Positions 25,295 to 59,445 are shown, counted from the stretch's first letter. The stretch: 64,000 nucleotides of DNA from Desulfatiglandales bacterium (GCA_963662465.1 OY759599.1:1216001-1280000); one strand, 5' to 3'. A program made the numbers and translations. The notes: a model not told the origin generated them from the sequence alone.

Positions 25295-25440
25295 GTTTCG
25301 GCCTCCATCAAATATTTAAAGAAACACTCTATCCTGTTATCTGATGAAGGCATTGTACAATATTTTGTATTAAAATCAAGGTATTCCGACAAGTTCTTTC
25401 GCTTGGGGTGAAAAAATGGAAAATTCCGACTCGATCTAGC

Positions 25441-25453
25441 TAAGTGCTTGATT
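25441..25453 (-). promoter_or_regulatory. Possible IHF site near the IS end
   Basis: TAAGTGCTTGATT is the reverse complement of the WATCAR-N4-TTR consensus. Confidence 0.35.
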
Positions 25454-28487: not shown

Positions 28488-30347
28488 AATGTTATTACGA
28501 TCCAAAACAGTATCCTGAGATTTTCTTTGAAATTGAGAAATGCATTAATGCCATCAGATCATGGATCAATGAAAGGGAGATGTTTCAATCATTGCAATAT
28601 TTTTATGTAACATTGTCTGCTCTTATTGATGAACTTGGTAGGTTAATAAGTCAATTATGGGATATTTGTAAGCCAATAAAAGGGAAAAAAAGCATTCCAA
28701 AAACACAACGGGATCGACAGAAAATTAGAATCTTTTATTCAATTCGTTCAATGATAAGTAATATTACTAAAAAATTGAATAATGTAAAAAGTCGTGATAG
28801 TACAATCAGTATTGCATTTGAGATAGGGATGTTAAAATCTTTTGATAAATCCATAATCGAAAATGTAAAAAAGAAAATGGAAGACCTTGTTTCTAAACGA
28901 GGAAATCAAACATATATCTTTCCTTATAATAACACCGAAAGCTATCATGCTCTCGTAAAAGATAGTAAGAAGTTTCGCATTGAAGTATTAGATAAACTCG
29001 ATAAATATGATCACCACACAGGCCATAATTCAACATGTTCTGGACCTAAAGAATATATTTTATCTGGTTTCCGCGGGAATCCTCGAAAAACAATAATGAA
29101 TGGAGGAGAACAACAGACATTCCCAATCCGCATGATACAATGCCGGAAGTGCAAACAAAAGTTCTCTCTTGTTCCCAGCTTTCTCCCAAGGGAAAAGAAT
29201 TTTGGTATAGAGATTATTGGGCACGTATTTCGGAATATGTACCGTTTTAATGCGAGCATTCAAGGAGCCATCTAAAGCCTTAAAATTATTGGCAAAAAAA
29301 GTGTCAAAAGCAAACAAACCATCTTGAACTGGAATCGATGGGCAGGAACACTTCATCCTGCAACAATACTAACAAGAGCAGGAGTGAAAGGCTCAGGATA
29401 TCTACAGGAAGATGAGGGCTTTGAAAAAGAACCAAATTTAAGAACTTATTCTGTAGTTATGGTCGATCCTGAAAATTTATTAGTATGGCACTCCGATTAT
29501 GTTGATCATGTTGATGAAGAAAACCTGTGCGGTTCATTTGAGGATTTTTTGCAAAAAATCGACTTCAAAATCCTTGGTGTAACAAAAGATAAGTGGAAAG
29601 CCTCAACCAATGCTATCAAGACCGTATTCCATAACATTTGGGTCGGATATTGCCATCGTCATTGTTTGAAAAACTTCTACGATGCACTATCAAAATATCA
29701 AAAAGAATCAAAATGTACCGACCAAGAAGTGGACAAGTTTTATAAAAAATTTAAGAAAGTTTTGAAAACATCCACATCTAAAGTTAACTTGGAAGTAAAG
29801 ATTAAGGCATTAGATGACGATGCATTTTCTCATCCATTACTAAAAAAGAGGGTAGTAGAATTAAAAGAAAATGCCACTCATTATACCTCTCATAAAAATA
29901 GAAATGGGATAAAACAAACAACCTCCATTGTTGACAATTATTTAAAAGGAATCAAACGTAAACTAAAACAAATTGAGAGTTTTCGAGATAAGAAATGGGC
30001 AAGTCTTTTCTTTCGAGCACATGCGACTATCAGGAATTTTGTCCCATTTTTACCTGGCGCAAAAAATGCTCATAAAAGTCCCTTTGAATTAGCCAACGGC
30101 CAAACATTTGACTTACCTTGGATTCAAGTTATGAATGTTCATAATGCATTCTTGTTTACCGAAAACGCCTTTTAATTTTGATGGGTTATACAACCCCACA
30201 ACATTTAGACTTATGCGAGAAAAATGAAGCCATAGTCGCTTATTCGAGTGAATCCGGGAAACCACTGTCCATACGATTTTATCTTGAAATAATCGGATTA
30301 ATCGGATATAAACAAACCACTTCACACCTGAACAAGGTATCAAATCC

Positions 30348-37639: not shown

Positions 37640-37727
37640 GCCTGGGTGGCGGAATTGGTAGACGCAAGGGACTTAAAATCCCTCGGAGGTTTCCTCCGTA
37701 CGAGTTCGATTCTCGTCCTAGGCACCA
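37640..37727 (+). tRNA. tRNA-Leu (TAA)
   Basis: GCCTGGG acceptor pairing with CCTAGGC-ACCA; D loop GGAATTGGTAGAC; anticodon loop CTTAAAA; long variable arm; GTTCGA T loop. Confidence 0.95.
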
Positions 37728-38449: not shown

Positions 38450-38849
38450 GGTAAAATCCTTTCGTATTCTTGATGGGGCGAAGGCGTTCTTCTTATTCCC
38501 CATTGGGGTGGCAGAATTTGAAAGGCCCACTTACGAGCCGACCGGATTGTAAGTCCTTACGGACTGAAACCACGGTAGTCCATAGTGAGCCTTGTTTACG
38601 AATTTTCCGCTCCCACATTGGAATAGCAATCAGATTTCCCGTGTGCGTAGGCAGAGACTCTGGCGAAGTTCTGTTCATCGGAAGATTCAAAAACCGTGAT
38701 TGCTTTGGCCCTGAGCGCCGCGAAGCTCTTCTCCCGGCTTCATAGAAGGGCTTTTCAAAGGGGAGACTGCGCCGGGCAGTTTCTGAGCGGGTGCGCTTCG
38801 CTCCCAAAGCATCTTCCTGTTAACCACTGGCCACCAAAGTGAGGTGAGT

Positions 38850-39089
38850 ATGGCTGCTACCATCACGTTTGATACTCTGAAATTCGTTAAAAGGCTTAAA
38901 GCTTCCGGTTTTGCAGAAGAACAGGCAGAGGCACTTTCCGATGCTTTCAAAGAATCCCAGGAAACAACCATTGCCGATCTTGCCACAAAAACGGATCTGA
39001 AAGAACTTGAAATGCGTCTCACATTCCGCATGGGGCTTATGTTGGCGGCTTCTATCGGAATTGTGGCCGCACTGGTTAAACTTCTGTAA
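38850..39089 (+). CDS. DUF1640/CCDC90-like protein, copy 1
   Basis: ITFDTLKFVKRLKASGFAEEQAEAL...LATKTDL plus a C-terminal hydrophobic helix. Confidence 0.85.
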   Translation: MAATITFDTLKFVKRLKASGFAEEQAEALSDAFKESQETTIADLATKTDLKELEMRLTFRMGLMLAASIGIVAALVKLL

Positions 39090-39768: not shown

Positions 39769-39823
39769 CTGACTTTCCCCCATGGTAGAATTCGTCATAT
39801 CCATTTCAAGAAAGGGGTTCATC

Positions 39824-40147
39824 ATGGGTGCCACCATAACGTTTGATACACTCAAATTCGTTAAACACCTAAAAGCCGCTGGGTTCAATGAAACACAAGC
39901 AGAGGCACTTTCCGACGTACAGAAAGAATCTTTAACTGAAATTATTGAAGACCGTCTGGCCACCAAAAAAGACCTGAAAGAGACTGAAACGGCCCTCAAG
40001 GGCGATATTGGTCGGGTTGAAAAGGACATTTCCGAAATTAAAAGCGAACAGATAAAACTCACGGGAGAGATTAATCTCATCAAATGGATGATGGGTTTTG
40101 TCCTTGCCGGTATTGCCGCGCTCATTCTGAAAACTTTCTTTGTGTAA
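39824..40147 (+). CDS. DUF1640/CCDC90-like protein, copy 2
   Basis: MGATITFDTLKFVKHLKAAGFNETQAEAL...LATKKDL, coiled coil, TM helix. Confidence 0.85.
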   Translation: MGATITFDTLKFVKHLKAAGFNETQAEALSDVQKESLTEIIEDRLATKKDLKETETALKGDIGRVEKDISEIKSEQIKLTGEINLIKWMMGFVLAGIAALILKTFFV

Positions 40148-40442: not shown

Positions 40443-41480
40443 ATGGCGGAAATACAAGGGGACAATCCCATCAGGATCTGGCTGGGGACAACCGAAGCCC
40501 AAACCGTGATTCGAAGGGCGTCCCGGCAGATCGCCGGTGAAGTTCGATTGAGAAGCCTTTCCCTCAATTTTTTGCAAAAGGATTTTTTGGGCCAAAGCCA
40601 TGAATCAGAGCTGTTAAACGACATTATCTCTGAACTGTCCCTTTTCATTTTGGAGAATGCAACCAGATGGCGAGACCAGTTTCAGCCGCAACATCCCCAT
40701 GCCCATATATACCTGAAAAAGGCCTTCATATCCCATTGGATTTCCAGGACCCGCAGGGCCGACCGCGATCCCAAACGGCATGTATACCGGCGGGTTCAGA
40801 TGCTCTTGAAACAGGCGCCGGGATTTTTTACCCATTCCGATAACAATCAAAAAACCGCTTTCAGCCGGATGGCGGAAAACGGGAAAATCTCCCGGTTGCT
40901 GGAAGACGATCTGGACGAAATCCCTTTCCCCCCGGTGGAATGCGACTACGAATCCATCAATCGGAAAGCCGTTCTGCTGGATCTTGCGGGCTATTTCTGG
41001 GATCGGGTCTCCGCCATGTGGGAAGGTCGGCCCGTGTGGGTGGATCTCAGGGATTTCACCAATTGGCTCGAACGCTTTGTTTTTCTGGGCGGTGCCATCC
41101 AGGAAGGCGGCGGGGTTTACGAGGATGATCCGCTGGACCGGCTTCCCCATCCCGGACCCGGTCCGGACCGGATCCCGGTTGATCCCGAACGGATCAGGTG
41201 CATGGCCCACCGGTTTGCCCGGGGGTTGGATGCAAAGGAAAAAACCGTATTTTTTATGATTCACGAAACGGATGCCCCGTTGCGGGAGGTTGCCCTGGCA
41301 GTGGGGTACAAGGGAAGCTCCGGTCCCAAATATGCGCTGGATCGGATCCATGAGCGGCTCGGGACGCTTCTCAGGGAAGAACCGGCCTTTGCGCCGGGGG
41401 AAACGGACCGGGAGGAGGCCTTTTCCCTCTTTTTCCACACCCTGCTGTCGATTTTGAAAAACCGGGACAAAAGGCCGTAA
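40443..41480 (+). CDS. Divergent sigma-70/ECF-like sigma factor
   Basis: Sigma2-like DIISELSLFILEN...YLKKAFISHWISRTRR; sigma4-like LDAKEKTVFFMIHETDAPLREVALAVGY...ALDRIHERL; long insert between them. Confidence 0.65.
   Translation: MAEIQGDNPIRIWLGTTEAQTVIRRASRQIAGEVRLRSLSLNFLQKDFLGQSHESELLNDIISELSLFILENATRWRDQFQPQHPHAHIYLKKAFISHWISRTRRADRDPKRHVYRRVQMLLKQAPGFFTHSDNNQKTAFSRMAENGKISRLLEDDLDEIPFPPVECDYESINRKAVLLDLAGYFWDRVSAMWEGRPVWVDLRDFTNWLERFVFLGGAIQEGGGVYEDDPLDRLPHPGPGPDRIPVDPERIRCMAHRFARGLDAKEKTVFFMIHETDAPLREVALAVGYKGSSGPKYALDRIHERLGTLLREEPAFAPGETDREEAFSLFFHTLLSILKNRDKRP
41452..41480 (+). promoter_or_regulatory. ECF-type promoter motif, site A
   Basis: TTTTGAA-N15-GCCGTAA in the last codons of the sigma gene, 49 nt before ATG 41530. 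Confidence 0.7.
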
Positions 41481-41529
41481 ACCAAGGAATAAGGGAAGGC
41501 CCGAACAGCACTTTCCACATGGACAGGAA

Positions 41530-42594
41530 ATGAACCCCATGAACGACCGAAAACGCGCCCTCATGATGGCCCGGCAATACCGGACCTGCCCACCCGATGA
41601 TGTGAAGGATGCTCCGTGGCAGGCCCTGGCGAGAGAACTGGAAAAAGTTTTTCGGGAGGGACAAAAAACTCCCGAACCGCCGGACCCGAAATCCGGCCAA
41701 TTGCGATGCCTCAATCCCCTTTCCCGGCCCTGGCGCGGAGACCGATTTTACAACCCCCCCATGGTGCTGATTCTGGAGTGCCTCTCCCCCCATGGCGCCG
41801 CGCACCGGGTCCGGTCGGCCCTCATCTTTCCCGACATACGCCTGGCCGCCCCCGGCGATCTCATTGTGTCGCTCGAAAGGTTCGGGGAGGGGGATATTTT
41901 CGTGGAATCGTGGAATATCATTACCCTGCGTCGGGATCATCTGGGACCGCTTGTAGATACCGTGAGCTCGGAAATCACAGCGGCGGTGGAGGCCCTGGCC
42001 GGGGACCCGGAAGCCTACCCCGCCTGGGCCATGATGCCTAGACCTTTTTTCCCAGGGGGTTCCGAATTTCCGGACCCCCGGCGGGAATTTCGGAAGCTGG
42101 AACGGGAAGTGGCGGGGGTATTTTCGGGCCTGCGGCCCGTCTATGGTTCGGCCCGGGAAACGGGGAAAGCCCTCGAAACAGCGGTTCCCGGCGTTTACTG
42201 GAAGAAAAAACCCGCAGGGGTGGACGAGGCCATGGCCCTGGCCCGGTTTCCCGACCATCAGCTTCCCTTGGCGGCGGCCGACGTTCATGGGGCAACCATG
42301 GCGGCCAATCTGGCGGTGCTGCGGGATGGGGAGGTTCAAACCTTTGTTCCCGTGCCCTTGACGATTTTCGGTAAAACCGGAAATCTCATGATTGCCGGGC
42401 GCATTACGGGCCTTCCAGCGGGGGTGGACCATTCCCGCTTGATATGCCGCCTGGAAGTGCCCGATGGCGCGTTCCTTTCCCCCGACCAATGTCGCTGGGA
42501 CCCGAAGGACGGGAATTTCGTCGTATCCTTTGAGGGGGTGGAAGGTATCGAGGGAACCCTCCGGGCCGCGGTGGTGGTGAAGAGTGAAGAGTGA
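41530..42594 (+). CDS. Putative anti-sigma factor, CalpT-like (MazF-like fold plus beta-rich C domain)
   Basis: GQL...NPPMVLIL...LAAPGDL...VESWNIITL...DPRREFRKLE pattern; linker QLPLAAAD; lies between the sigma and protease genes. Confidence 0.55.
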   Translation: MNPMNDRKRALMMARQYRTCPPDDVKDAPWQALARELEKVFREGQKTPEPPDPKSGQLRCLNPLSRPWRGDRFYNPPMVLILECLSPHGAAHRVRSALIFPDIRLAAPGDLIVSLERFGEGDIFVESWNIITLRRDHLGPLVDTVSSEITAAVEALAGDPEAYPAWAMMPRPFFPGGSEFPDPRREFRKLEREVAGVFSGLRPVYGSARETGKALETAVPGVYWKKKPAGVDEAMALARFPDHQLPLAAADVHGATMAANLAVLRDGEVQTFVPVPLTIFGKTGNLMIAGRITGLPAGVDHSRLICRLEVPDGAFLSPDQCRWDPKDGNFVVSFEGVEGIEGTLRAAVVVKSEE

Positions 42595-42614
42595 AGAGTT
42601 AAGAATTAAGAGTG
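42577..42614. repeat. Heptamer tandem repeat (GTGAAGA) x5, degenerate
   Basis: GTGAAGA x3, GTTAAGA, ATTAAGA across the stop codon at 42594. Confidence 0.75.
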
Positions 42615-42677
42615 GGGGGGGTGAGGTTTGAAATGAAGGGACCTGACGTTCTTAAAAATCGGGGTTGAAGGCTGTTG

Positions 42678-44810
42678 ATGCCCATGGATATCTCTTTCCT
42701 CCTTTTTCTATCGGAAGTTTCATGGTCCCGGGACCTGGTGTCGTCCCTGCTTTGCGATCCCCGGACCACTTTATGGGGATCCCTTTCCCTGTCACGGTTC
42801 AAGACCCAATTTAACAACATCGGCAATAATTTTAAACACACGCCCTGTCTCATGACCTTGCTGGAACGGCATCTTCTGGCCCGCTGCCTTCTTCGGGGCG
42901 CGGATGTTCCGGAATGGTTCTTCCGGTTCGTGGAAGAGACCATCGACCTTGAAGAACATCTGCCCGGCATGGATTGGAATGCCTGTTGCGCCGGGCGATG
43001 GGTGGCCGCGCCCATGCTCCTGGTGGGCGAACGGGCCCATCTGCGATGGCTTTTGGTGGGGCGGGTGAAGCAACCTCGTCCTCGTCCGTTTCCCCCCTGG
43101 GTCGAAGAACTGATGGATTCGAAGGCCCGGCATGCCGTTATGGATGCCATGACAGCCGTAAGCCCGGCTGGATGGGATACTGTGCCGCCGCCGGGCGCGT
43201 TCACCTGCTTTCCCCTGGTGGCGGCCCATGAAAACTGCCGCATTGCCGGCGTTTCCCTGGGGCTTTCCACGGCCCTGGCCTGCATTTTTCTGGATAACGG
43301 GGGTGAGGGAATCATGGATGTCGCCGCTGCCGGAACGGTGCAAAAGGACGGCGCCGTGGGACCGGTGGGTCGGCTCCCGGAAAAGGTTGCCCATGCGGCG
43401 AAAAGCGGGTTTCGGCTCATGGTGGTCCCCGCCGGGAATCGCCTTCCTGCCGATTGCCCGGAAATGGATGTCCTGCCCGCGGCTACCCTGGCAGAAGCAT
43501 GGTTGTTGGCGTCCCTCCATGGGCCGGGCCGGGGAAACCGGTTGCGCCTGTTTGAAGCCATGTTGAATGATCCCCGAACCTTCGTGGATAACTGCGCCGC
43601 CGTTCCGACCCAATGGCTTTGGTGGGCGAAAAAGAACGGACGAACCGGGTCCGTCATGGCGCAGGTTTGCTCAGCGGAATCACTATTCGGCCGATTTGTG
43701 CATCACATGGGGGATTGCCTCCGGAACGGTCGCCTGTCCCATGGGGAAACCCTGGCGCAACTGCCGGACTCCCCTCCGCGGGACCATGGGGATTGTTCTC
43801 CCGCATCCCGGTTCAAATGGATTCTCGTAAACCTGGCCCTTGCCAATCATCGGGGACTGGTGTTGGAGAGTGAGCAGTGGGCCGGGAGGGCAGGTAAGAT
43901 GGTAAAGGGGGCTTCCGTAACCGACCTTACGGCCTTTGCCGCCTTTTACAATTACGGGTTTGTGGGGTTGCGTCATAATCAATACCGGTTTACGCCGGAA
44001 TTGCCCGGTCCCCTGGCAGACCTCCTGTCGTCTCTTGAGACCATGCACAGGGCCCAGTGCCGCATTCTTCCCGGTTCTCAAAACGGCGCCCTTGGGGCCC
44101 TTTACGGCACCATTGCTCAGAACTTCGGATTTTGCGGTCCTTCCTTTCTAACGCAAACCCGGAAGTATGTCCTCCTTTCCACGGAAGCCTTCGGGGATGA
44201 TCCCTCCGTCCATGAAGATCGCCGGCGACAACAGCATTGCCTGGCCTATGCCCTGATGGATGCGGGCCGGTTCCGGGAGGCGGAAGAGACCCTCCTTCCC
44301 TATCTGGATGTGATGTCCCGGGACGAACTGTGCGACCGCCTGCCCGGGTTCCAGAAGTGGGAACATGCGCTTCTGGCGCGGTTTCTGGTCGATTTCAGAC
44401 CGGTGGAAATGTGCCGTCGGTATGCCCAATGGGTTGAAAGGGAGGGTGCTTCCATGGTCGGAAAAACACATCCCTGGCAATTGTGGCGTCATAATATGGG
44501 CCGTGTCATGCTGTTTCTGGGGCGAAGGGAGGAGGCCGTCTTTTTTTTCAAAGAGAGCCTCGAATTGTGTCTTTCCGGCCGTTTCGGCGCCACGGTGCGG
44601 GTGATGGCGTTTCTGCCCCTGTCGGGTCTTCGCAAATCGGACGCGCTGAAGGGGTTGAACCTGGACGCCCTGGAAAAGACCCTTCGGAGTGCGGCTGGTT
44701 CCTTGAACCCGGTTCATTTTCAGGATCTGCTGAAGGAAAAGGACTTTCTGAAAGCATTGGATCGGGTGTGGGAAAAGCCGGCCGATTTCTTCCCTTTTAC
44801 CTATCGTTAG
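42678..44810 (+). CDS. Lon-type (S16) protease domain protein with a helical/TPR-like C-terminus, no AAA+ domain
   Basis: IAGVSLGLSTALA...AGTVQKDGAVGPVGRLPEKVAHAAKSG..VVPAGN; Ser and Lys are 43 residues apart, as in the Lon dyad. TPR-like helices (LAYALMDAGRFREAEETL; NMGRVMLFLGRREEAVFFFKESLEL). Confidence 0.8.
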   Translation: MPMDISFLLFLSEVSWSRDLVSSLLCDPRTTLWGSLSLSRFKTQFNNIGNNFKHTPCLMTLLERHLLARCLLRGADVPEWFFRFVEETIDLEEHLPGMDWNACCAGRWVAAPMLLVGERAHLRWLLVGRVKQPRPRPFPPWVEELMDSKARHAVMDAMTAVSPAGWDTVPPPGAFTCFPLVAAHENCRIAGVSLGLSTALACIFLDNGGEGIMDVAAAGTVQKDGAVGPVGRLPEKVAHAAKSGFRLMVVPAGNRLPADCPEMDVLPAATLAEAWLLASLHGPGRGNRLRLFEAMLNDPRTFVDNCAAVPTQWLWWAKKNGRTGSVMAQVCSAESLFGRFVHHMGDCLRNGRLSHGETLAQLPDSPPRDHGDCSPASRFKWILVNLALANHRGLVLESEQWAGRAGKMVKGASVTDLTAFAAFYNYGFVGLRHNQYRFTPELPGPLADLLSSLETMHRAQCRILPGSQNGALGALYGTIAQNFGFCGPSFLTQTRKYVLLSTEAFGDDPSVHEDRRRQQHCLAYALMDAGRFREAEETLLPYLDVMSRDELCDRLPGFQKWEHALLARFLVDFRPVEMCRRYAQWVEREGASMVGKTHPWQLWRHNMGRVMLFLGRREEAVFFFKESLELCLSGRFGATVRVMAFLPLSGLRKSDALKGLNLDALEKTLRSAAGSLNPVHFQDLLKEKDFLKALDRVWEKPADFFPFTYR

Positions 44811-45334: not shown

Positions 45335-45410
45335 GACCACCGGATAGAGCCGGAAGCCACACACACGCCAATTTTATATAAGTGTGTTTCCGGCCAATTG
45401 CAAGGCCGGA

Positions 45411-45827
45411 ATGATGGGAGATGTCCTTTTAAGAGTGGTTCAATGCCGATGTTGTGGTTGCTTTTTTCACGTCTGTCGGTCGTGTTGGCGTGGCCAGGCC
45501 TATTGTGGGGAACGATGTCGCAGGATACGCCAAAGACAGCTGCACCGGAAAGCTCAGGGGAAATACCGCAATTCGAAAAAAGGGAAAGAGCGCCGTCGTT
45601 TGTACGAAAAAACAAAAAAATCCAAAAAAAATGGACTGAACCCTGGTGATGATAGTTCAACACCTCAAAAAGACTGTGATATTGAACCCAAAAAGCGGTC
45701 GGGGAACCGACCCAGCTGTCTTTTTTGCGGGTCGATCGGGGTTGTTGTGGACCATTTTCCTCGCCGTGCTTATGCAGGGAGGGTTTTTTCAGATGTAACA
45801 GGCTTTGAGAAAACCCCATATCCATGA
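45411..45827 (+). CDS. Cys-rich basic hypothetical protein (IS passenger)
   Basis: CRCC..FHVCRSCWRGQAYCGERC and CLFCG; start uncertain. Confidence 0.65.
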   Translation: MMGDVLLRVVQCRCCGCFFHVCRSCWRGQAYCGERCRRIRQRQLHRKAQGKYRNSKKGKERRRLYEKTKKSKKNGLNPGDDSSTPQKDCDIEPKKRSGNRPSCLFCGSIGVVVDHFPRRAYAGRVFSDVTGFEKTPYP

Positions 45828-45839
45828 CAGGAGAAAAAA

Positions 45840-46259
45840 ATGATCAAAAAAAGAGTCCTTTTTCCCGAAAGAGTGCGTGTCATCAATGGAAGCTTCGGCT
45901 TTCTGGAGCATCGTTTTTTGAGAAACGGCTTTTGGGAGAGCCTGAATCATCATGAGCTGCTGCTCTACATTTTTCTGGTGTTGGTATCTGACAAAAACGG
46001 TCTCTCTTATTATGGTTACGACAGAATCTGCCGGATTTTAAAGGTGCATTTGGATCAATATATCGATGCCCGCGATGGCTTGTTGGACAAGGATCTGATT
46101 GGGTTTGATGGCCGTCTGTTTCAGGTTCTTTCGCTTCCCAGACGTCCTGTGATTGTGAAACAGGTAAAGGAGATCCGGCAAGGAAATTGGGTCAGTCTTG
46201 GAGAAACCATAGAGGAAATCTTTCGGGAGACTGGGTATGGAATCCATCCGAACCGTTGA
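45840..46259 (+). CDS. Hypothetical wHTH-like protein (IS passenger)
   Basis: AGGAG RBS; LLYIFLVLVSDKNGLSYYGYDRICRIL...ARDGLLDKDLI. Confidence 0.7.
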   Translation: MIKKRVLFPERVRVINGSFGFLEHRFLRNGFWESLNHHELLLYIFLVLVSDKNGLSYYGYDRICRILKVHLDQYIDARDGLLDKDLIGFDGRLFQVLSLPRRPVIVKQVKEIRQGNWVSLGETIEEIFRETGYGIHPNR

Positions 46260-47121
46260 TATTCATTTGCTGGAGTTGCGTTACGCTCATTGCCGGATAA
46301 TGAATCACCAGGCTTTAAAGCGATTGAGGGATTCCATCGAAACTTACGGGCAGATCGTTCCGGCCCTGGCTATTGAAGAAAAAGACAAACTGATTCTGAT
46401 TGATGGCTACCTGCGTGTTCGAGCGCTTTGTGCTTGTGGAAAGGACCGGATATGTGTCCAATTCTCAAAAGAAAACGAACAAAATGCCATGTTTTCGCTT
46501 TTAACCAAGGCCAATGAACGGCAATGGGAAGTCATTGAGCAGTCTGTTTTACTTCAGGAATTACATCGGCGTTTTGGGTGCAGCCTCTCCCATATTGCAA
46601 CCCGAATAGGGCGCGACAAGAGTTTTGTAAAACGGCGGCTGGACCTGGTTGAAGCCCTGCCGGAAAATATTTTGAGAACCGTGATTGCAGGCTCACTTTC
46701 AACCTGGGCTGCCGGCCGTGTCATGGCGCCGTTGGCGCGCGCCAACGGTGAAGACGCACAAAAACTGTTGGCCCACCTGGAAAAAGAACCTCTATCCACA
46801 AGGGAACTGGCCCGTTTCTACGCACATTACCAGAAAAGCAACCGGTCTGTTCGAGACCACATGCTGGAAAATCCATCCCTTTTCATAAAAGTTCTCGAAC
46901 AAAGAACCCAGTCTAAACAAGCCAAAGAAGTTCATGATGGACCGGAAGGCAAATGGTTCAAGGATATTGAAATGGCATATGCGGTTCTCAAACGTCTGGT
47001 GAAAACCGTTTCGCATGTCCATTACCCAAAAAGCGATCAGTTGAAGAAACAAACGCTCAAAACCTGGGTGAAAAAGATAGAAAAACAAGCACTGGAACTC
47101 AAGAAAGCGACCCAATTATGA
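46237..47121 (+). CDS. ParB N-terminal domain protein (IS passenger)
   Basis: LRDSIETYGQIVP, LIDGYLRVRAL, HTH SLSHIATRIGRDKSFVKRRL. Confidence 0.85.
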   Translation: MESIRTVDIHLLELRYAHCRIMNHQALKRLRDSIETYGQIVPALAIEEKDKLILIDGYLRVRALCACGKDRICVQFSKENEQNAMFSLLTKANERQWEVIEQSVLLQELHRRFGCSLSHIATRIGRDKSFVKRRLDLVEALPENILRTVIAGSLSTWAAGRVMAPLARANGEDAQKLLAHLEKEPLSTRELARFYAHYQKSNRSVRDHMLENPSLFIKVLEQRTQSKQAKEVHDGPEGKWFKDIEMAYAVLKRLVKTVSHVHYPKSDQLKKQTLKTWVKKIEKQALELKKATQL

Positions 47122-48500
47122 TCCGACAATCCAAAAAAGATGCCATTGTGGAATTGAAAAAAACCGGCATGAGTTTGCGCGACATCGCCAAAACCCTGAA
47201 GGCCGGTCGCAATACCGTCACGAAGGTTTTAGATGATCATGACGAAGAGGCGGTACCCCAAAGGAACTCCCGGTATGAAGAACATGTCCCGTTGATCCGC
47301 GAGCTTTTCAAGGAATGTAAAGGAAATGCCGTGCGAGTAGCCGAGGAACTGGAAAGCCGCCAACAGATCAAAATCCCTTATCAGAGTCTGACCTGGATTA
47401 TGAGAAAGTACGAGATCCGGGAACGTAAAAAAAGACGGGCGGGCCAATACCATTTTAAACCCGGTCAGGAGATGCAGCATGATACGTCACCCCATCTGGT
47501 TGTCATTAATGGGAAAAAAATGTCGACCCAGTGCGCGTCCCTGACCCTGGCCTTTTGCCGAAGGATTTTTATTCAGTATTACCCCTGTTTTACCCGGTTT
47601 GAGTGCAAGGTTTTCCTAAAAAAAGCATTCGAGTTTATGGACGGGGTGTGTTCCCGGTGCATGGTTGACAACACCAATGTTATTGTGGCCGGCGGCACCG
47701 GGCCTGATGCATTGATTGCGCCTGAAATGAAATACTTCGGCGATATGTATGGAACCCGGTTTGAGGCCCATGCTGTAGGAGACGCCAATCGAAGTGCCCG
47801 TGTGGAAAGGCCTTTTCATTTTGTGGAAAACAATTTTCTTCCCGGTAGAACATTTGTTAGCTGGCAGGATTTGAACCGGCAGGCAATCGACTGGTGCCGG
47901 AATACAAGCGATAAAAAGTTTAAACGGGCTTTAGGGATGACGCCGGATGAGGCCTATGTCATTGAAAAGCCATATCTCATTGATTTACCGGCATACCAGC
48001 CGCCAGTCTATGTGGCAGAACACAGGGTAGCCGATGTTCAGGGATATGTGCACTTGGACACCAACCGCTATTCAGTCCCTGAAGCGCTGATTGGGAACTC
48101 CCTGGAAGTACAGAAACATTGGCTCAAGGTCATCGTTTACGACAAAAACACAAAAGTGGCGGAACATGACCGCATACTGGATAAACGCAACACCCGAACA
48201 ACCCTGCCCGGTCACCATGTTCCCATTCGAAGAAAAAAAGATCCCCGAATCCCTTCAAAAGAAGAACAGCTGTTGACGGGAGAGGATGCCATCCTGGATG
48301 AGTATGTGGCTGAACTGAAGAAAAGAAGTCACGGTCGCGGTGTGGTCAAGTTACGTCGGTTGCTTCATCTGAAACGCACTTATCCCGGGGAACCTTTTTT
48401 GAAAGCCATAACACAGGCGCTTAAATATGGACTTTTTGATTTGTCGCGTCTGGAAAACATTATTCTCGATTATATCGCGGGAGACTTTTTTGATCTATGA
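47118..48500 (+). CDS. istA: IS21 transposase
   Basis: HTH; PGQEMQHD, CMVDN, ARVERPFHFVENNF; C-terminal LDTNRYSVP. Confidence 0.92.
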   Translation: MIRQSKKDAIVELKKTGMSLRDIAKTLKAGRNTVTKVLDDHDEEAVPQRNSRYEEHVPLIRELFKECKGNAVRVAEELESRQQIKIPYQSLTWIMRKYEIRERKKRRAGQYHFKPGQEMQHDTSPHLVVINGKKMSTQCASLTLAFCRRIFIQYYPCFTRFECKVFLKKAFEFMDGVCSRCMVDNTNVIVAGGTGPDALIAPEMKYFGDMYGTRFEAHAVGDANRSARVERPFHFVENNFLPGRTFVSWQDLNRQAIDWCRNTSDKKFKRALGMTPDEAYVIEKPYLIDLPAYQPPVYVAEHRVADVQGYVHLDTNRYSVPEALIGNSLEVQKHWLKVIVYDKNTKVAEHDRILDKRNTRTTLPGHHVPIRRKKDPRIPSKEEQLLTGEDAILDEYVAELKKRSHGRGVVKLRRLLHLKRTYPGEPFLKAITQALKYGLFDLSRLENIILDYIAGDFFDL

Positions 48501-49216
48501 AAAAGAAAATTGAACAGTTACTCATTGATTTGAAGTTTAAAGGCATGCTGAAGGCTCTCGAAGAACAGTTGGCTTCGGCTGAAAAGAACGGTTTTTCCAT
48601 TCACGAGGTCATCTACAATCTCCTGGCTGAGGAATTACGTTTCCGGCAGGAGCGCAGCATGATCTATCGGGTCCAGATTGCAAAGCTTCCATGGGAATGG
48701 ACCCTCAACTCCTTTCCGTTTGATCTTCAGCCGGGAATACAGAAGAGCCGGATCATGACGTTGTCCGGCCTTGACTTTATCAGCCGAAGAGAAAACATCG
48801 TGTTCCATGGAAAAACCGGCGTCGGCAAAACGGGATTGGCCGTGGGGATCCTTCGTCAAGCCATTATTGCCGGGTACCGGGGGCGTTTTTATAATGTTCA
48901 GGATTTGCTGGATCAGCTCTATGCGTCTTTGGCAGATCGGTCCACCCCGAAACTCCTCAATGCCCTTTGCAGATATGACCTGCTTCTGCTCGATGAACTG
49001 GGATACCTGACCCTCAAAAAAGAGCAGATGAACGCCTTTTTTAAACTCATGAAAGATCGCTATGAAGCCGGTCGGTCCACAATTATTACGACCAATCTTC
49101 AACCTGAACAATGGTATTCGCTGCTTGAACCAAAGGACATGGTCGATGCCTTGCTGGATCGTCTCAACCATCGCTGCATCAACATTCATATTGATGGTCC
49201 TTCCCTCAGAAAATGA
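48497..49216 (+). CDS. istB: IS21 helper ATPase
   Basis: HGKTGVGKT, LLLLDELGY, STIITTN, DALLDRL. Confidence 0.93.
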   Translation: MKKKIEQLLIDLKFKGMLKALEEQLASAEKNGFSIHEVIYNLLAEELRFRQERSMIYRVQIAKLPWEWTLNSFPFDLQPGIQKSRIMTLSGLDFISRRENIVFHGKTGVGKTGLAVGILRQAIIAGYRGRFYNVQDLLDQLYASLADRSTPKLLNALCRYDLLLLDELGYLTLKKEQMNAFFKLMKDRYEAGRSTIITTNLQPEQWYSLLEPKDMVDALLDRLNHRCINIHIDGPSLRK

Positions 49217-51238: not shown

Positions 51239-54200
51239 GTCAGAACCATTGCCCCGCTTCGAGGGGATTGAGACAACAGCGCAGCATATCTTTCTTTCAC
51301 TTTCATGATAAAGTCAGAACCATTGCCCCGCTTCGAGGGGATTGAGACTTTCGATCGTTTCGATTATCTGTTCTTCGCTTGTGAGGTCAGAACCATTGCC
51401 CCGCTTCGAGGGGATTGAGACAGAGCGTTTCCGGAAAAGGATTCATGTCCGTATGTATGTCAGAACCATTGCCCCGCTTCGAGGGGATTGAGACTTCACA
51501 ACCGACCCAGCCATCGTCAACCGCAAGGCCGAGAGTCAGAACCATTGCCCCGCTTCGAGGGGATTGAGACAATCCTCCTCGTAATTTTCTTTAGCTCCTT
51601 CGGCTTCCCGTCAGAACCATTGCCCCGCTTCGAGGGGATTGAGACTTCACCTGTAGAGTCTTCGTACTCTTCCAGGTAGTCGAGTCAGAACCATTGCCCC
51701 GCTTCGAGGGGATTGAGACTTGTACTACATTTCTCTCATACCCTGTTCGTACGCATCGTCAGAACCATTGCCCCGCTTCGAGGGGATTGAGACTTTCCAG
51801 GTACTCGAAATTTTTATGACCGCAGGTGGGTCAGAACCATTGCCCCGCTTCGAGGGGATTGAGACGAGACATAGTTTGTTTCTGTTAGTTGCATGATTTC
51901 CGTCAGAACCATTGCCCCGCTTCGAGGGGATTGAGACAGATTTAAGAGGTGTGGCGGGCAGGATCGCAGTATGGTCAGAACCATTGCCCCGCTTCGAGGG
52001 GATTGAGACGTCCATATCTCATCAACTATCGGACCTAAAAAATTTTGGTCAGAACCATTGCCCCGCTTCGAGGGGATTGAGACTCCGCCCAGCGTGCATA
52101 GCCGATGAAACAATTGCGCGGGTCAGAACCATTGCCCCGCTTCGAGGGGATTGAGACTTTGATAACTTTCAACACGGTGTACGACAACCGTCCCTGTCAG
52201 AACCATTGCCCCGCTTCGAGGGGATTGAGACTCAACATTCCACCAGGGGCTTTTACACTTCGGGCAAACGTCAGAACCATTGCCCCGCTTCGAGGGGATT
52301 GAGACATACCTGCGTTTCGTCTAATTGTAGAAATCGCCATATGGGTCAGAACCATTGCCCCGCTTCGAGGGGATTGAGACTTACAAACAAGTTTTCATTC
52401 TGAGAGTCTGAATTGACAGTCAGAACCATTGCCCCGCTTCGAGGGGATTGAGACTCCATAGCTTGCTAGCTCCTTTTCGTTCGCTTAGCAGGGTCAGAAC
52501 CATTGCCCCGCTTCGAGGGGATTGAGACATAGGTGTTTATATCGTCGCTGATTATTTTGTAGTGTTTGTCAGAACCATTGCCCCGCTTCGAGGGGATTGA
52601 GACTAACCTTCAGAGGTTTCTTTTCTTTTTCCATTGCGTCGTCAGAACCATTGCCCCGCTTCGAGGGGATTGAGACTGTTCACCCTCAATGATGGCTCCA
52701 CAACCCTTTGTATCGGTCAGAACCATTGCCCCGCTTCGAGGGGATTGAGACTGTCATACCGATTTTTACTGCCGCTTTCATTGGTAAAAGTCAGAACCAT
52801 TGCCCCGCTTCGAGGGGATTGAGACATCTTCAAATTTTCGCCAGCTTTTTTCGGATGATGGGTCAGAACCATTGCCCCGCTTCGAGGGGATTGAGACTCT
52901 CAAGCTTCGGATCATAACAGCAGTCGTCAAAACTAGGTCAGAACCATTGCCCCGCTTCGAGGGGATTGAGACGTATTGCTCGCCAGGCGACGGTCGTACA
53001 CTTAGCATGTCAGAACCATTGCCCCGCTTCGAGGGGATTGAGACTCCTCGAAACTTTCGCCCTTGATGAAAGAGAATTCAGGTCAGAACCATTGCCCCGC
53101 TTCGAGGGGATTGAGACCGACCTTTTTATCCGAGCGCCATCGCTGGGCGTGTTCGTCAGAACCATTGCCCCGCTTCGAGGGGATTGAGACCTACCAGCGT
53201 ATTCTCCCGTTTAATTGCCATTAGCTAGTCAGAACCATTGCCCCGCTTCGAGGGGATTGAGACTTTGAAACATTGTAATCACCATACAACATACATTGCT
53301 AGTCAGAACCATTGCCCCGCTTCGAGGGGATTGAGACTTCCCTATTTCAATGGGGTGCTGGTCAATGAGACCCTCGTCAGAACCATTGCCCCGCTTCGAG
53401 GGGATTGAGACTTTGTTGCTAAACTGGCTTTCTCTAGCATGGCTTGCGTCAGAACCATTGCCCCGCTTCGAGGGGATTGAGACTTATCGGCTAAGGTTAC
53501 TATCTTGGCCAACATATCTGGTCAGAACCATTGCCCCGCTTCGAGGGGATTGAGACTTTAGTTTGAATCCCATCTGCTGGGCAATCAGCTGTGTCAGAAC
53601 CATTGCCCCGCTTCGAGGGGATTGAGACGAATAGGCATGTGGGTTGTTTTGCTATTATATGATGCGTCAGAACCATTGCCCCGCTTCGAGGGGATTGAGA
53701 CTAAAACCGCCGATGGTTCCACAAGGGACCGATTCCGTAGGTCAGAACCATTGCCCCGCTTCGAGGGGATTGAGACCGTACGTATCTATAATTGTTTCAA
53801 TTTCATTCAATAAGTCAGAACCATTGCCCCGCTTCGAGGGGATTGAGACTAGAAGTAGCAAGTTTCTCCCTCGCAAATTCCGTCTTGTCAGAACCATTGC
53901 CCCGCTTCGAGGGGATTGAGACTCCGGAAATACTCTCATGACCGTACGTATCTATAATCGGTCAGAACCATTGCCCCGCTTCGAGGGGATTGAGACTTTT
54001 CAAGTTTCTTTCACAATCTTCCAATTTGTTAAGTCAGAACCATTGCCCCGCTTCGAGGGGATTGAGACCAAACGGTTTCGAGCCTCGATACGGGCTTCGA
54101 GCATACCCCGGTCAGAACCATTGCCCCGCTTCGAGGGGATTGAGACATTAAATTCTTTTGTCATACCTGCTATCTGATTATTGTCAGAACCATTGCCCCG

Positions 54201-54960
54201 CTTCGAGGGGATTGAGACTTGGCCGGCGGTCAACCCTAATTCAACAGCTTTTTTCGTCAGAACCATTGCCCCGCTTCGAGGGGATTGAGACACACAAGAT
54301 TATCGCTTCGATTGTTCCTGGGGTTTCCAGTCAGAACCATTGCCCCGCTTCGAGGGGATTGAGACTTTACAATACCTGCAAAATCTTTTTTTCATTTATC
54401 TTGTCAGAACCATTGCCCCGCTTCGAGGGGATTGAGACTGTACCAATTCCATAATTTACGCCTTTGTGGTTTTCCATGAGTCAGAACCATTGCCCCGCTT
54501 CGAGGGGATTGAGACCTGGCAAATCCTTTTGAGCCCAATAACTTCCGGCACAAGTCAGAACCATTGCCCCGCTTCGAGGGGATTGAGACATGAAATCATC
54601 ATAAAGCTGCGGTCCTTTTACCGCGACGTCAGAACCATTGCCCCGCTTCGAGGGGATTGAGACTGATGCTGTCCTGCCGTTAGCCCCATTTCAAGGGCTT
54701 GTCAGAACCATTGCCCCGCTTCGAGGGGATTGAGACTTCCTACGTGCCCAACCATGGGCCGCTGTTACGATATGTCAGAACCATTGCCCCGCTTCGAGGG
54801 GATTGAGACATCACTCTCTTTTCATCGTTCATTACTTTCCCCTTGTATTAGTCAGAACCATTGCCCCGCTTCGAGGGGATTGAGACTATATCATCTTCAC
54901 ATGCGCAACTGAACTAATTGGCAAGTCAGAACCATCGCCCCGCTTCGAGGGGATTATCGT
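51239..54960 (+). CRISPR. CRISPR array, 51 repeats and 50 spacers, probably type III
   Basis: 36-nt repeat GTCAGAACCATTGCCCCGCTTCGAGGGGATTGAGAC counted by hand; spacers 36-42 nt; last repeat (54925) degenerate. Confidence 0.98.
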
Positions 54961-55178
54961 ATTTTCGTGATGAACAGGACCTGCAATATTAATGATGTAC
55001 AAAGATATTCCGCTGGGATAGAATGCGAGGATGAAGATGAATGAATTGTTCTATTTGGCATCTCCCTGAGCAATTAAATGCTGGTTTTTTTTGGCTTGGG
55101 TGTATTTTTCCGCCAAATGCATTGTCTTTTAAGATTGACTGTAGATCGGATTCAATTTTTGCCATTCTGAGGGTTTAC

Positions 55179-55565
55179 GTGAAAAAAGGAGCCGAATACT
55201 GGCTTGATATTGCTGAATATGATTTGGAAACAGCTCGGGTCATGTTGCGGGGAAAGCGATTTTTGTATGTGGGATTTATGTGCCACCAGGTTGTTGAAAA
55301 AGTCTTCAAGGGACATTACGCTTCCAAGCATGATGACAACCCTCCCTTTACGCATAATCTAAGAATCCTTGCTCTGAAAAGTGGACTATTCGAAGAAATG
55401 GATGAAAACCAGAAGCGTTTTGTTGAACTGCTCGGCCCTCTGAATATCGAAGCAAGATATCCGACCTACAAGGAAAAAATTTTAAAATCTCTCACGACGA
55501 AAAGATGCAGGGACATTTTGAAGAAGACAGAGGACATGTTTTCATGGGCAAAAAACAAATTTTAG
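55179..55565 (+). CDS. HEPN domain protein
   Basis: WLDIAEYDLETA, FMCHQVVEKVFKG, PPFTHNL, IEARYP; probable GTG start. Confidence 0.88.
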   Translation: MKKGAEYWLDIAEYDLETARVMLRGKRFLYVGFMCHQVVEKVFKGHYASKHDDNPPFTHNLRILALKSGLFEEMDENQKRFVELLGPLNIEARYPTYKEKILKSLTTKRCRDILKKTEDMFSWAKNKF

Positions 55566-55864: not shown

Positions 55865-56091
55865 GGGCACGGCGCGTCGTGCCCTTAGGGTGCAATAGAA
55901 AAAAGTTTCATAGAACAAAACGTGATCATTTCCATACCACAATCACAGGACCGCCAGCCGGCTGGCATACAGGTCTCGTACAACAATAACAATCACCGGA
56001 CCAAACCGGGCAGACACACAGGTCTGCCCCTACTTACCCCCCACCTTTTGATTCACGATATGCCCGTAGGGGCGGACCTATGTGTCCGCCC
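55861..56091. repeat. REP-like palindromes
   Basis: GTAAGGGCACGGCGCGTCGTGCCCTTA (55861); inverted pair GGGCAGACACACAGGTCTGCCCCTAC (~56008) and GTAGGGGCGGACCTATGTGTCCGCCC (~56066). Confidence 0.7.
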
Positions 56092-56143
56092 TTTATGCCT
56101 GCCTGCATCACTTTAAAGATTTTAAACCCCACAAACGATTTTT

Positions 56144-56172
56144 TTTTGAACATTCCTCCCACATGGCCGTAA
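56144..56172 (+). promoter_or_regulatory. ECF-type promoter motif, site C
   Basis: TTTTGAA-N15-GCCGTAA, 83 nt before the TPR gene start. Confidence 0.75.
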
Positions 56173-56255
56173 CACAAAGACATAAGCGTTCCCTGTCATT
56201 GTTTGCAACGGGAACGATGGGTCCAGCACAGCAGCCAACGGGAGGAGGAAAGACC

Positions 56256-57611
56256 ATGCCGGCTCAATTACAGGAAGCATTGAAACAGGCGGTGGGAAAC
56301 CAGACGTTTCCCAAAGGGCAAGAGAACGTCGATAATGACGCGTTCTTTTCCATGGACGATCTCGTGCCAGTCAAAAAGGATGCCGCAAAGCGGAGTCTTA
56401 AACGGGTTCTTTTAGAGATGGAAGAATTGATCCGTGAAAAGAAATGGGAAGACGCGGCGGCGCTTTTTTACCCAATCGAGGAAAAACAGCCGGAACTTCT
56501 GGCTCACGGCATGGATATTCCCGTGCGGGCTAAGGCGGCCTTTGCCCTGGGACAGTTGAATCGGTACGACGCGGCCATTGCGGAGCTGATGTTGTGCGTC
56601 AAAGGGGAACCTGAAAATTTTTACCATCACAGTTCCCTGGCTTATACGGCCTATAGTTCCCTTTTCGCCGCCCAGAAACGGGAAATTTTTCTGAGCGGCA
56701 AGATCCGGGCCGAGCGAATCGAATTGGCCCATCGGCATTTCAGACGGTCCCAGGAATTGCGGCCCACGGGGGTTACCAACTTCTACCGGGAAGGGATGCT
56801 CTACCAGAAGATCGAGGGCAAATCGGAAAAGGCCCGGCCGTTTTTTCAAAATGCCGTTTCCTGCTGGGAGCATCTGTCCGCAGAAGAGCAAAAGGCTAGA
56901 GCGCAGGAACGGAAGAATTATGTGAAATCCCTATACAGGCTTTCCGGCGTTCTCCTGGAAAAAGGGGATGGGGCCGGCGCTCTCAGAACCATGAACCGCT
57001 GCCTGTCGGAAGATGAAAAGAGCGGGTATCTGTCCCTGGTGTTCAAGTATTTCGCCTATGGCAAGATCAACCATTATTTGAACCGATTCGACAAGGCCAG
57101 GGATGCCCTTCTGTTTGCCCTTCAGAGTGGAACGGGCGGGAATCATGATTTTGTGAATGAATTGCTTTCCCGCACCTATCTCGCTTTGGGCAATCCACAG
57201 CGGGCACTGGAAGTGATTCTCAAAATCCCTGAAAATCGCCGCAGGCCCTATTGCCGGTGGACGGAAGCGGATGTGTTGTGCGCACTGAAACGATATGACC
57301 AGGCCAGGGCGGCCCTGCTCAAAAGCGGGGAACGGGACACCCGATCCCGGCATAAAAGCTTGATGCGGCTGGTAAAGATCGAGTATGCGGAAAATCATTT
57401 TGACAAGGCCCGGTCTTATGCCGCCGAAGCGGATCGGTTTTTCAAGGAGAAATGGGGCAACCATTTTCTGGAGGGACTCTTTTGGCAGGCTGTATGCGCC
57501 TATCGGCAGGGAAATAATGACGAGGCACTGGCCCTGGCCGGGGAGTTAAAAGCGCTGAAATCCGATTATCCAAAGCTGGATGTACTGTTGAAGAGGCTTG
57601 AGGGGTGTTGA
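56256..57611 (+). CDS. Tetratricopeptide repeat protein
   Basis: Repeated TPR helices (AFALGQLNRYDAAIAEL; LSRTYLALGNPQRALEVI); ATG 56256 behind GGAGGAGG. Confidence 0.85.
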   Translation: MPAQLQEALKQAVGNQTFPKGQENVDNDAFFSMDDLVPVKKDAAKRSLKRVLLEMEELIREKKWEDAAALFYPIEEKQPELLAHGMDIPVRAKAAFALGQLNRYDAAIAELMLCVKGEPENFYHHSSLAYTAYSSLFAAQKREIFLSGKIRAERIELAHRHFRRSQELRPTGVTNFYREGMLYQKIEGKSEKARPFFQNAVSCWEHLSAEEQKARAQERKNYVKSLYRLSGVLLEKGDGAGALRTMNRCLSEDEKSGYLSLVFKYFAYGKINHYLNRFDKARDALLFALQSGTGGNHDFVNELLSRTYLALGNPQRALEVILKIPENRRRPYCRWTEADVLCALKRYDQARAALLKSGERDTRSRHKSLMRLVKIEYAENHFDKARSYAAEADRFFKEKWGNHFLEGLFWQAVCAYRQGNNDEALALAGELKALKSDYPKLDVLLKRLEGC

Positions 57612-58398: not shown

Positions 58399-59445
58399 AT
58401 GGAAGCGGTATACGTACTCGAACCGGGCAGCTACATCCGACGGGAGGGCATGAGCCTCAAGGTGGTCAAGGACGGCAAGGTCCTGGAGCAGATCCCGGCG
58501 GATGGACTCAAACGGTTGATGTTGGTGGGGTATGTGTCCCTGACGGGCAGCGTGTTGGATTTTCTGATCCGCAACCGGGTGGAAACCGTTTTCATGACCC
58601 CCACCGGGCGGTTTCGCGCGAGACTCACCCTGGACGAACAGGGGCATGTGGAACGGCGCCGAACCCAGTATCTTCAATTGAGCCGCAAGGCATTTGCTCT
58701 GGAAACGGCACGCATGGTGGTTCGGGGGAAAATCAGAAATATGCTTCGATTCACCCTGTTGCGAGCCCGGCAGTACGGCGATGAGGCACTGAAAATTGCC
58801 GCTGTGCGCCTCAACAGCGCATCGGCCCACCTGGACGACATCAAGGAGATGGAGGGGTTGCGGGGGGTGGAGGGGGCCGCCACCCGGGCCTACTTCGGAG
58901 GGTTCAATCACCTGCTTCGAAACGAGACGTTTATCTTTAAAGGACGGAATCGAAGGCCGCCCCTGGACCCTGTCAATGCCCTCCTTTCCTTTGTTTACAC
59001 CCTGCTGACCAATGAAGTCCTCTCCGCCGTTCAGGCCGGCGGCCTGGACCCTTATCTCGGGGCCCTTCATGAACCGCTCCCGGGAAGGCCGTCCCTGGCC
59101 TGCGACCTGGTGGAGGAATACCGCACATTTTTGGGGGACCGGCTGGTGCTGGGCCTGATCAATCGGAAGGTCATCGGGAAGGACGATTTTGTTTACGGCA
59201 AAAAGCCGCCCAAGGTCTTTGTGGATGAAGAAGACCTGAAGCGAAAGCGGCCCGTTCTCATGAAGCCCGCCATCTGCCGGGCCTTTATTCAGGCCTATGA
59301 AGAGATGATGAAACGGGATGTTTACTATCCCCCCCTGGACAAAAAAATCACCTACCGGTGGTTGATCCTCCAGCAGGCCAGACGATTCGGCGGTTACCTG
59401 AAGGAACCGGAAAAGAAATACCTCCCCTTTACGTGGGATTCCTGA
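58399..59445 (+). CDS. cas1: CRISPR integrase Cas1
   Basis: LRGVEGAATRAYF, RNRRPPLDPVNALLSFVY, GLDPYLGALH, SLACDLVEEYR. Confidence 0.97.
   Translation: MEAVYVLEPGSYIRREGMSLKVVKDGKVLEQIPADGLKRLMLVGYVSLTGSVLDFLIRNRVETVFMTPTGRFRARLTLDEQGHVERRRTQYLQLSRKAFALETARMVVRGKIRNMLRFTLLRARQYGDEALKIAAVRLNSASAHLDDIKEMEGLRGVEGAATRAYFGGFNHLLRNETFIFKGRNRRPPLDPVNALLSFVYTLLTNEVLSAVQAGGLDPYLGALHEPLPGRPSLACDLVEEYRTFLGDRLVLGLINRKVIGKDDFVYGKKPPKVFVDEEDLKRKRPVLMKPAICRAFIQAYEEMMKRDVYYPPLDKKITYRWLILQQARRFGGYLKEPEKKYLPFTWDS

Follow-up and report, generated by a model that had tools for sequence, protein, structure and literature searches.

What is the role of three consecutive genes that encode a sigma-like protein, a candidate anti-sigma protein and a Lon-type protease in the vicinity of a CRISPR locus? 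The question is raised by a stretch of 64,000 nucleotides from a Desulfatiglandales bacterium (GCA_963662465.1 OY759599.1:1216001-1280000), referred to here in its full length as the window, in which the open reading frames ORF1, ORF2 and ORF3 occupy positions 40443 to 44810. CalpLTS and Craspase are examples of CRISPR systems that answer infection by protein cutting and sigma release, and a first-pass annotation made from the window sequence had proposed that a Calp-like logic operates here as well. Having weighed the evidence given below, we consider it reasonably probable that the triad is a type III CRISPR-linked proteolytic transcription switch, similar to CalpL-CalpT-CalpS, in which the SAVED domain is replaced by a helical sensor.

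As annotated, the three genes are present and co-oriented on the plus strand, on which all features of the triad discussed below are also located. ORF1 (40443..41480, 345 aa) encodes the sigma-like protein, a candidate for the released transcription factor; ORF2 (41530..42594, 354 aa) encodes a CalpT-like anti-sigma candidate; and ORF3 (42675..44810) encodes a Lon-TPR protease of 711 aa if read from a TTG codon, or of 708 aa from the ATG at 42684, which is the form found in databases. Relatives of ORF3 were collected from 12 loci of Desulfobacterota metagenome-assembled genomes as a first sample. Of these loci, 10 have an ORF2 relative adjoining ORF3 and 8 have an ORF1 relative; the order is ORF1-ORF2-ORF3 throughout, and the loci in which one of the relatives is missing were either truncated by contig ends or too divergent for BLAST. 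The same order is kept in unrelated contigs, a conservation far beyond chance that makes the triad a real conserved module. Overall, the ORF3 family comprises 360 representatives (50% identity, E<=1e-30), and among 401 genomes sampled from the phylum 19 carry relatives, in 17 of 255 genera. In a scan of metagenome contigs for ORF3 relatives, none of 220 pattern matches was confirmed. Two metatranscriptome runs gave small shares (0.06), with contigs covering a few hundred ORF3 bases at 0-3 mismatches; these were not counted as evidence of expression, as RNA libraries may contain DNA.

Some relatives depart from the common layout. In two loci (L056, 16252-18999, and L059, 2908-4929) a gene related to ORF1 or ORF2 reaches a far greater length (916 aa and 674 aa, respectively) and may be a fused form. 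Two further loci (L068 and L069) harbor divergent ORF3-like proteins, which match the profile only at positions ~50-415 and are encoded next to the curli genes csgE and csgF; no ORF1-like gene was detected there, the genomes give weak Cas10 matches only, and the proteins probably belong to a separate subfamily. The first-pass annotation did not recognize the architecture of the triad as a described system, and no published description was found in the literature on CalpL/CalpT/CalpS, on Lon-TPR proteins, on Lon with an anti-sigma factor beside type III CRISPR, or in surveys of type III accessory genes, a scope outside which the original CalpL paper and its supplements fall. Similarly, the Lon-TPR/anti-sigma/sigma architecture was not found in the accessible parts of PMC11229360, PMC10028731, PMC6546367 and bioRxiv 270033.

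The best defined member of the module is ORF3. By its own sequence it gives weak Lon_C matches (E 3e-3, residues 193-256) and weak TPR matches in searches against Pfam, NCBIfam and PADLOC. Structure prediction combined with Foldseek, which had been suggested along with the annotation, was more informative. The AlphaFold2 model, built from an alignment with 13 relatives (mean predicted local distance difference test score, pLDDT, of 86.7; predicted template modeling score, pTM, of 0.75), consists of helices at residues 1-103, an alpha/beta domain at residues 105-281 and helices only at residues 284-708. The middle domain (42996..43526) matches the proteolytic domain of E. coli Lon (1rr9_A; Z 20.8, root-mean-square deviation (rmsd) 2.8, 169 aligned residues; Foldseek E 5e-5). 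Ser194 (43254-43256) and Lys237 (43383-43385), separated by 43 residues as the annotation had it, align with S679 and K722 of the E. coli enzyme and are both kept in all 141 full-length ORF3 representatives, the median identity of which to the window protein is 30%. Comparison with CalpL (7qda_A; Z 14.0, rmsd 4.8, 212 aligned residues, model residues 4-311 against chain residues 1-258) extends over the Lon domain and the helical N-domain (42684..42992, residues 1-103 of the 708-aa form). The helical N-terminal domain of CalpL is the docking site of CalpT; in ORF3, conservation is lowest in the N-domain (mean column conservation 0.29). Domain searches found no AAA+ ATPase module in ORF3, and only its proteolytic domain matches Lon, in agreement with the stand-alone Lon domain of the annotation. 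By its predicted structure, ORF3 belongs to the Lon proteases but is AAA-less and has a helical N-domain like that of CalpL. It differs from the ATP-dependent proteases LonA and LonB in the missing AAA+ module and in the small helical domain formed by residues 1-103, and a plain housekeeping Lon is ruled out by the absence of that module together with the conserved gene partners.

CalpL senses cyclic tetra-adenylate (cA4) via a C-terminal SAVED domain. The tail of ORF3 (43533..44807, ending in FPFTYR) is of a different kind. Described in the annotation as about 400 residues of helical or TPR-like sequence without a SAVED or CARF motif, it turned out to comprise ~425 residues folded into helices only, with pLDDT mostly between 85 and 95. 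Fold comparison of the AlphaFold2 model detected neither a SAVED nor a CARF domain in this tail, the best matches being TPR-type repeats, and the CARF-Lon models of PADLOC match ORF3 in the Lon region only (E 0.02-0.09). The closest look-alikes are Rap of phage phi105 (Z 16.1), domain III of MalT (Z 16.0), NprR (Z 14.7) and AimR (Z 13.9), values that are common among helical repeats. The helical superhelix of ORF3 resembles those of these RRNPP receptors and of MalT, none of which is a protease. Mean column conservation is 0.415 in the tail versus 0.396 in the protease domain; 33 columns of the tail are at least 90% conserved, and a near-invariant FPFx(Y/F)(R/H), with FPF at least 95% conserved, closes the C-terminus. 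Such strong conservation of a candidate sensor suggests that its ligand or host partner is invariant (cyclic oligoadenylate, cOA, or the Csm complex) and speaks against a fast-evolving phage protein as the ligand.

The window sequence of ORF2 has no match in Pfam, NCBIfam or PADLOC, and its single-sequence search of PDB was also empty, while a profile search retrieved 88 relatives, all annotated as hypothetical. We modeled the protein through its orthologue from locus L001, the closest full-length one (81% identical to the window ORF2), using an alignment of 53 sequences (AlphaFold2, pLDDT 85.7). The model has N-terminal helices (residues 6-74), then a beta domain (86-173) and a second helical part (176-265), and, beyond a short linker, a C-terminal beta-sandwich (285-380). 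The beta domain, which maps to approximately residues 51-162 of the window protein (41680..42015), has a MazF/CcdB fold: it aligns best with 8zws_A (Z 10.9, rmsd 2.8, 99 aligned residues; Foldseek E 6.9e-4), the top 12 fold matches are all MazF, Kid or CcdB, and 83 chains reach a Z of at least 8. The MazF-like domain proposed in the annotation is therefore real in fold but is the second domain of the protein and not the N-terminal one. The annotated PLAAAD linker is found as LPLAAAD at 42262..42282 (residues 245-251). This putative cleavage site follows the motif (L/I)P(L)AA(A/S)(D/E), kept across the 53 aligned sequences, and at the sequence level it matches LAAA, the mapped cleavage site of CalpT. 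The combined match of fold and motif to CalpT is the strongest mechanistic lead. The beta-rich tail noted earlier corresponds to the C-terminal beta-sandwich (42295..42582), for which the whole-protein model gave only weak Ig-like fold matches (Z ~5). No CalpT chain is seen in the ORF2 fold listings; these are dominated by the MazF domain, and so have no bearing on the C-terminal domain. A 7-nt tandem repeat, GTGAAGA x5.4 (42577-42614), spans the ORF2 stop codon, and many unrelated short contigs map onto it, so copies occur elsewhere.

A second feature of the ORF2 family is a zinc anti-sigma motif, C-x17-H-x3-C-x2-C, located in the N-terminal helices of 52 of the 53 aligned sequences; Pfam zf-HC2 matches weakly in 3 of 11 family members. 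ORF2 relatives share C...H-x3-C-x2-C in a helical N-terminus with ZAS/zf-HC2 anti-sigma factors such as RsrA and ChrR. Unlike in those proteins, the motif is here fused to a MazF-fold domain and a presumably cleavable linker, it is missing from the window copy, and the confidently predicted contacts with ORF1 fall mainly in the MazF-fold region.

For the window sequence of ORF1, too, searches of Pfam, NCBIfam and PADLOC and a single-sequence search of PDB were empty, and 16 relatives were found. A sigma region 4-like helix-turn-helix (41217..41378, residues 259-312) is nevertheless indicated by several comparisons. Sigma70_r4 and Sigma70_r4_2 are each recognized in 11 of the 22 family members that were aligned (best E 3.6e-6), the window copy not being among them; hhalign of ORF1 against four sigma factors of this genome aligned residues 259-312 (probability 68.5%, E 4.6e-5); and the family profile matched region 4 of FliA in PDB (E 0.003). 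Prediction of the complex of the sigma-like protein with ORF2, another suggestion of the annotation, supported an interaction for the orthologous pair from L001. The score, which expresses the confidence of the model, was 0.70 (runs 0.71, 0.69 and 0.70) versus 0.00 for the best control; 116 of 157 solved complexes attain this mark, as do 2 of 215 mismatched pairs. The runs agreed in at least 42% of contacts, with partner pLDDT of at least 75, and the confident contacts involve the first ORF2 helix, the MazF-fold domain and the following helix. The L001 orthologues of ORF1 and ORF2 are thus predicted to bind each other.

The CRISPR locus reported nearby is evident as an array of 50 identical 36-nt repeats (51239..54886, plus strand; 0 expected by chance), followed by cas1 (58399..59445, plus strand; Pfam Cas_Cas1 E 2.5e-85, also recognized by the NCBIfam cas1 model). 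About 22 kb downstream of the triad, shortly past the end of the window, this genome encodes PrimPol, Cas6, Cas10/Csm1 and Csm2-5, that is, a type III-A system, and the HD and GGDD motifs of Cas10 are intact in 4 of 4 cases checked (this genome and three relatives). The same downstream locus encodes a CARF-adenosine deaminase, Csx20 and a TM1812-family CARF protein, all candidate cOA effectors. The three come after Csm5 (L015, 10490-14300; G000:C1:1289490-1293300); the deaminase has 701 aa and the TM1812-family protein carries an R-N-G-F-D-H motif.

A survey of the neighborhoods of homologous triads, which the annotation had proposed, revealed a link to type III loci. Eleven of the 12 first-sample loci were scanned for cas genes, L010 being left out as a near-duplicate of L009. 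Cas6 lies directly downstream of the triad in 7 of 11 loci and Cas10 is found in 3 of 11. L001 encodes Cas1 and a CRISPR-associated PrimPol, and L008 and L009 have Csx20 and TM1812 homologues between the triad and Cas6. No cas gene was seen in L011, and the contigs of L004 and L007 end too early to tell. For a second sample, 18 loci were fetched, 2 of which were dropped as no Lon ORF was called at E<1e-30; of the 16 analyzed, 6 have cas or CRISPR-accessory genes no more than 9 kb away. At the genome level, a strong Cas10 match was obtained in 15 of 19 triad-bearing genomes versus 150 of 382 others (one-sided Fisher p 7e-4, relatives not being independent), and in 9 triad-bearing genomes Cas10 lies on the contig of the triad, 7-32 kb away.

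How might such a module work? The present computations cover the folds, the catalytic dyad, the linker motif, the linkage of the genes and a binding prediction for ORF1 with ORF2, and the picture resembles the Calp system in several respects. According to the accessible part of one study, CalpL, CalpT and CalpS are consecutive genes, CalpT, which combines a MazF-like domain with DUF2080, is cut by CalpL within LAAA, as mapped for CCaCalpL on CCaCalpT, the cut exposes an LAA degron and the ensuing degradation releases CalpS, and the Cloacimonas Calp locus holds a CARF-adenosine deaminase (bioRxiv 10.1101/2024.05.08.593097). In the window we likewise find a three-gene set by type III-A cas genes with a CARF-adenosine deaminase in the locus, a protease made of a helical N-domain and an ATPase-less Lon domain with a Ser-Lys dyad, a partner composed of a MazF fold, an alanine-rich LAAA-type linker and a small C-terminal domain, and a third protein with sigma region 4 that is predicted to bind the partner. 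By homology to the studied Calp system, ORF2, through its MazF fold and, in most relatives, its zinc anti-sigma N-terminus, would keep the sigma-like ORF1 inactive. The helical N-domain of ORF3 would probably dock on ORF2, and the TPR-like domain, placed where CalpL has SAVED, would receive an activating signal. Once activated, ORF3 would cut ORF2 in the LPLAA-A(D/E) linker, leaving an N-terminal product that ends in ...LAA and could serve as a degron for housekeeping proteases. Removal of this fragment would free ORF1 and redirect transcription. The two systems are nevertheless distinct. In contrast to Calp, ORF3 has a ~425-residue TPR-like helical domain in place of SAVED, ORF2 relatives carry an extra zinc anti-sigma-type N-terminus and have no DUF2080 match, ORF1 has 345 aa and no detectable region 2, and the genes run in the order sigma, partner, protease.

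Several observations weigh against the proposed switch and temper our preference for it. The first-pass annotation had described both sigma2- and sigma4-like segments in ORF1, and only the latter were recovered: none of 22 family members matches Sigma70_r2 at E<=1 in Pfam, hhalign aligned region 4 alone, and the profile search of PDB found no region 2 either. The sole hint of that region comes from a cluster of language-model look-alikes of ORF1, in which 15% of members have Sigma70_r2. DUF2080 was not found in ORF2, either by Pfam in 11 members at E<=5 or by fold; PF09853 (DUF2080) found nothing in this genome, and when the 401 genomes were searched with it, the only matches were partial ones in 63-109-aa open frames, none of them a CalpT-like protein. 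The binding prediction was made for the L001 pair and not for the window pair. Finally, ORF3 has no recognizable cOA-binding domain, and the link to CRISPR signaling consequently comes from gene neighborhood only. The Calp-like logic put forward in the annotation is supported in part, namely as regards the CalpL alignment, the helical tail, the MazF fold with its LAAA motif and the type III linkage, and falls short at sigma region 2 and at the zinc motif of the window ORF2.

Other explanations were considered. The triad could be a self-contained switch independent of CRISPR, in which the TPR-like domain responds to an input of its own, for instance a stress signal, a peptide or a protein of phage or host, perhaps with the help of a redox-sensitive zinc site of ORF2, and which gathers in defence islands without input from Cas10 or Csm. 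In its favor, ORF3 has neither SAVED nor CARF, its best tail look-alikes are peptide or ligand receptors (Rap, NprR, AimR, MalT domain III), and further genes of defence type share the island in which the window lies. Moreover, 10 of the 16 second-sample loci have no cas gene within 9 kb, and 2 of the 19 triad-bearing genomes (93% and 96% complete) have no Cas10 match, with 2 more giving weak matches only. However, several of those 10 loci have Cas10 on the same contig, 10-26 kb away, and the genomes without Cas10 are incomplete assemblies in which the triad sits on short contigs. The position of Cas6, the enrichment of Cas10 and its presence on the contig of the triad, described above, also speak against independence, and a sensor at least as conserved as the protease domain is an ill fit to a receptor of phage proteins in an arms race. 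We consider this explanation somewhat unlikely. If ORF2 were instead a latent MazF-type toxin, the module would be an abortive-infection device whose protease releases an active RNase while ORF1 regulates the operon. ORF2 does have the MazF/CcdB fold, and the original CalpT work reportedly raised the toxin idea as well. Its sequence identity to MazF toxins is only 8-19%, though, it is predicted to bind the sigma-like ORF1, nearly all of its relatives carry the anti-sigma zinc motif, and in the studied Calp system, as far as the accessible part of the report goes, the MazF-like part is the sigma-binding fragment (bioRxiv 10.1101/2024.05.08.593097). The toxin explanation is accordingly very improbable.

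A further explanation concerns the window copy itself, which could be a decaying or rewired remnant that is no longer a regulated switch, with ORF1 constitutively free or uncontrolled. Relative to L001, a DNA alignment places the junction of a 78-nt in-frame deletion at 41604..41609, and this deletion removes H-x3-C-x2-C; the window ORF2 keeps only Cys20 and is the single one of 53 sequences without the zinc ligands, a loss by which the copy may be impaired. In addition, 6.4 kb lie between triad and array in the window, including inserted mobile DNA (45384..49216, plus strand) in which Pfam recognizes a Cys-rich ORF, a helix-turn-helix protein, a ParB-like protein and IstA/IstB of IS21. In L001 the array begins 767 nt past the triad, with a repeat that differs by one base from that of the window, and because of this spacing we regard the 6.4-kb stretch as an insertion. 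Against a remnant, all three ORFs are intact, and the copy still has its catalytic dyad, LPLAAAD motif and MazF domain. The deletion keeps the reading frame, is common to a 97%-identical ORF2 protein from another assembly and leaves the rest of the protein in place, and the confidently placed contacts of the predicted interface are mostly outside the deleted stretch. A remnant is in our view unlikely, and the CRISPR-linked proteolytic switch remains the reading that we prefer.

If the switch is CRISPR-linked, the TPR-like domain of ORF3 becomes of particular interest. Tentatively, and as a possibility that we rate well below the switch itself, this domain could be a new class of receptor for the type III CRISPR alarm, acting either by docking on the target-bound Csm complex or by binding cOA. 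Docking on Csm, if true, would be a Craspase-like coupling, independent of a second messenger, in a system that contains Cas10. Binding of cOA, if true, would involve a fold never seen to bind one. Type III-E Craspase (Cas7-11, the TPR-CHAT protein Csx29, Csx30, Csx31 and CASP-sigma) is comparable in that a CRISPR-linked protease with a TPR-type domain is combined with a sigma factor and a cleavable sigma-binding partner, cleavage being presumed in our case. It differs in that ORF3 is of the Lon type and not a CHAT caspase-like protease, in that this genome has, in place of Cas7-11, a multi-subunit Csm effector whose Cas10 is cyclase-competent, and in that nothing matching Csx29 or Csx30 in sequence or fold was seen. 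The accessible part of PMC10028731 gives the type III-E logic as cutting of an inhibitor by a protease followed by sigma release.

The remainder of the window provides the wider genomic context. Between the array and cas1 are genes for a HEPN-domain protein (55041-55565) and a 509-aa TPR protein (56082-57611), and a similar TPR protein adjoins Cas1 and PrimPol in L001, L063 and L066. The CRISPR-cas locus is split at 59993-63657 by an iron-type ATP-binding cassette (ABC) transporter (binding protein, FecCD permease and ATPase) and an NTPase, a block located between cas1 and the PrimPol, Cas6 and Csm genes. At the other end of the window, a row of genes on the minus strand (5114-23024) encodes an S24 peptidase, a 1778-aa DEAD/MZB helicase, an 888-aa ParA-like ATPase, a 1841-aa Eco57I-type methylase and a 1085-aa SNF2 helicase, and is a DISARM/BREX-like defence island. 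It is followed at 23813-30175 by two transposase genes (DDE_Tnp_1 and Transposase_29) and a stretch of low GC content (36-44% at 24-30 kb), which lie between the defence island and an amino-acid ABC transporter operon. Closer to the triad, a tRNA-Leu gene (37640-37727) precedes short ORFs, two of which are paralogous genes for CCDC90-like coiled-coil proteins (38844-39089 and 39782-40147), and the triad may sit in an island inserted at this tRNA-Leu.

Overall, the triad keeps the protease core of Calp, a MazF-fold partner and the cleavage motif, and swaps the only known signal receiver, SAVED, for a large, conserved helical domain. Either of the two modes of activation considered above, if true, would give CRISPR-driven proteolysis and transcription control a third class of sensor in addition to CARF and SAVED. 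With 360 representatives and an occurrence in 19 of 401 genomes, this unrecognized input route to CRISPR-linked transcription control may be common. The identity of the trigger would reveal a new second-messenger receptor or a direct coupling to Csm, and the module could possibly yield a new programmable protease switch.

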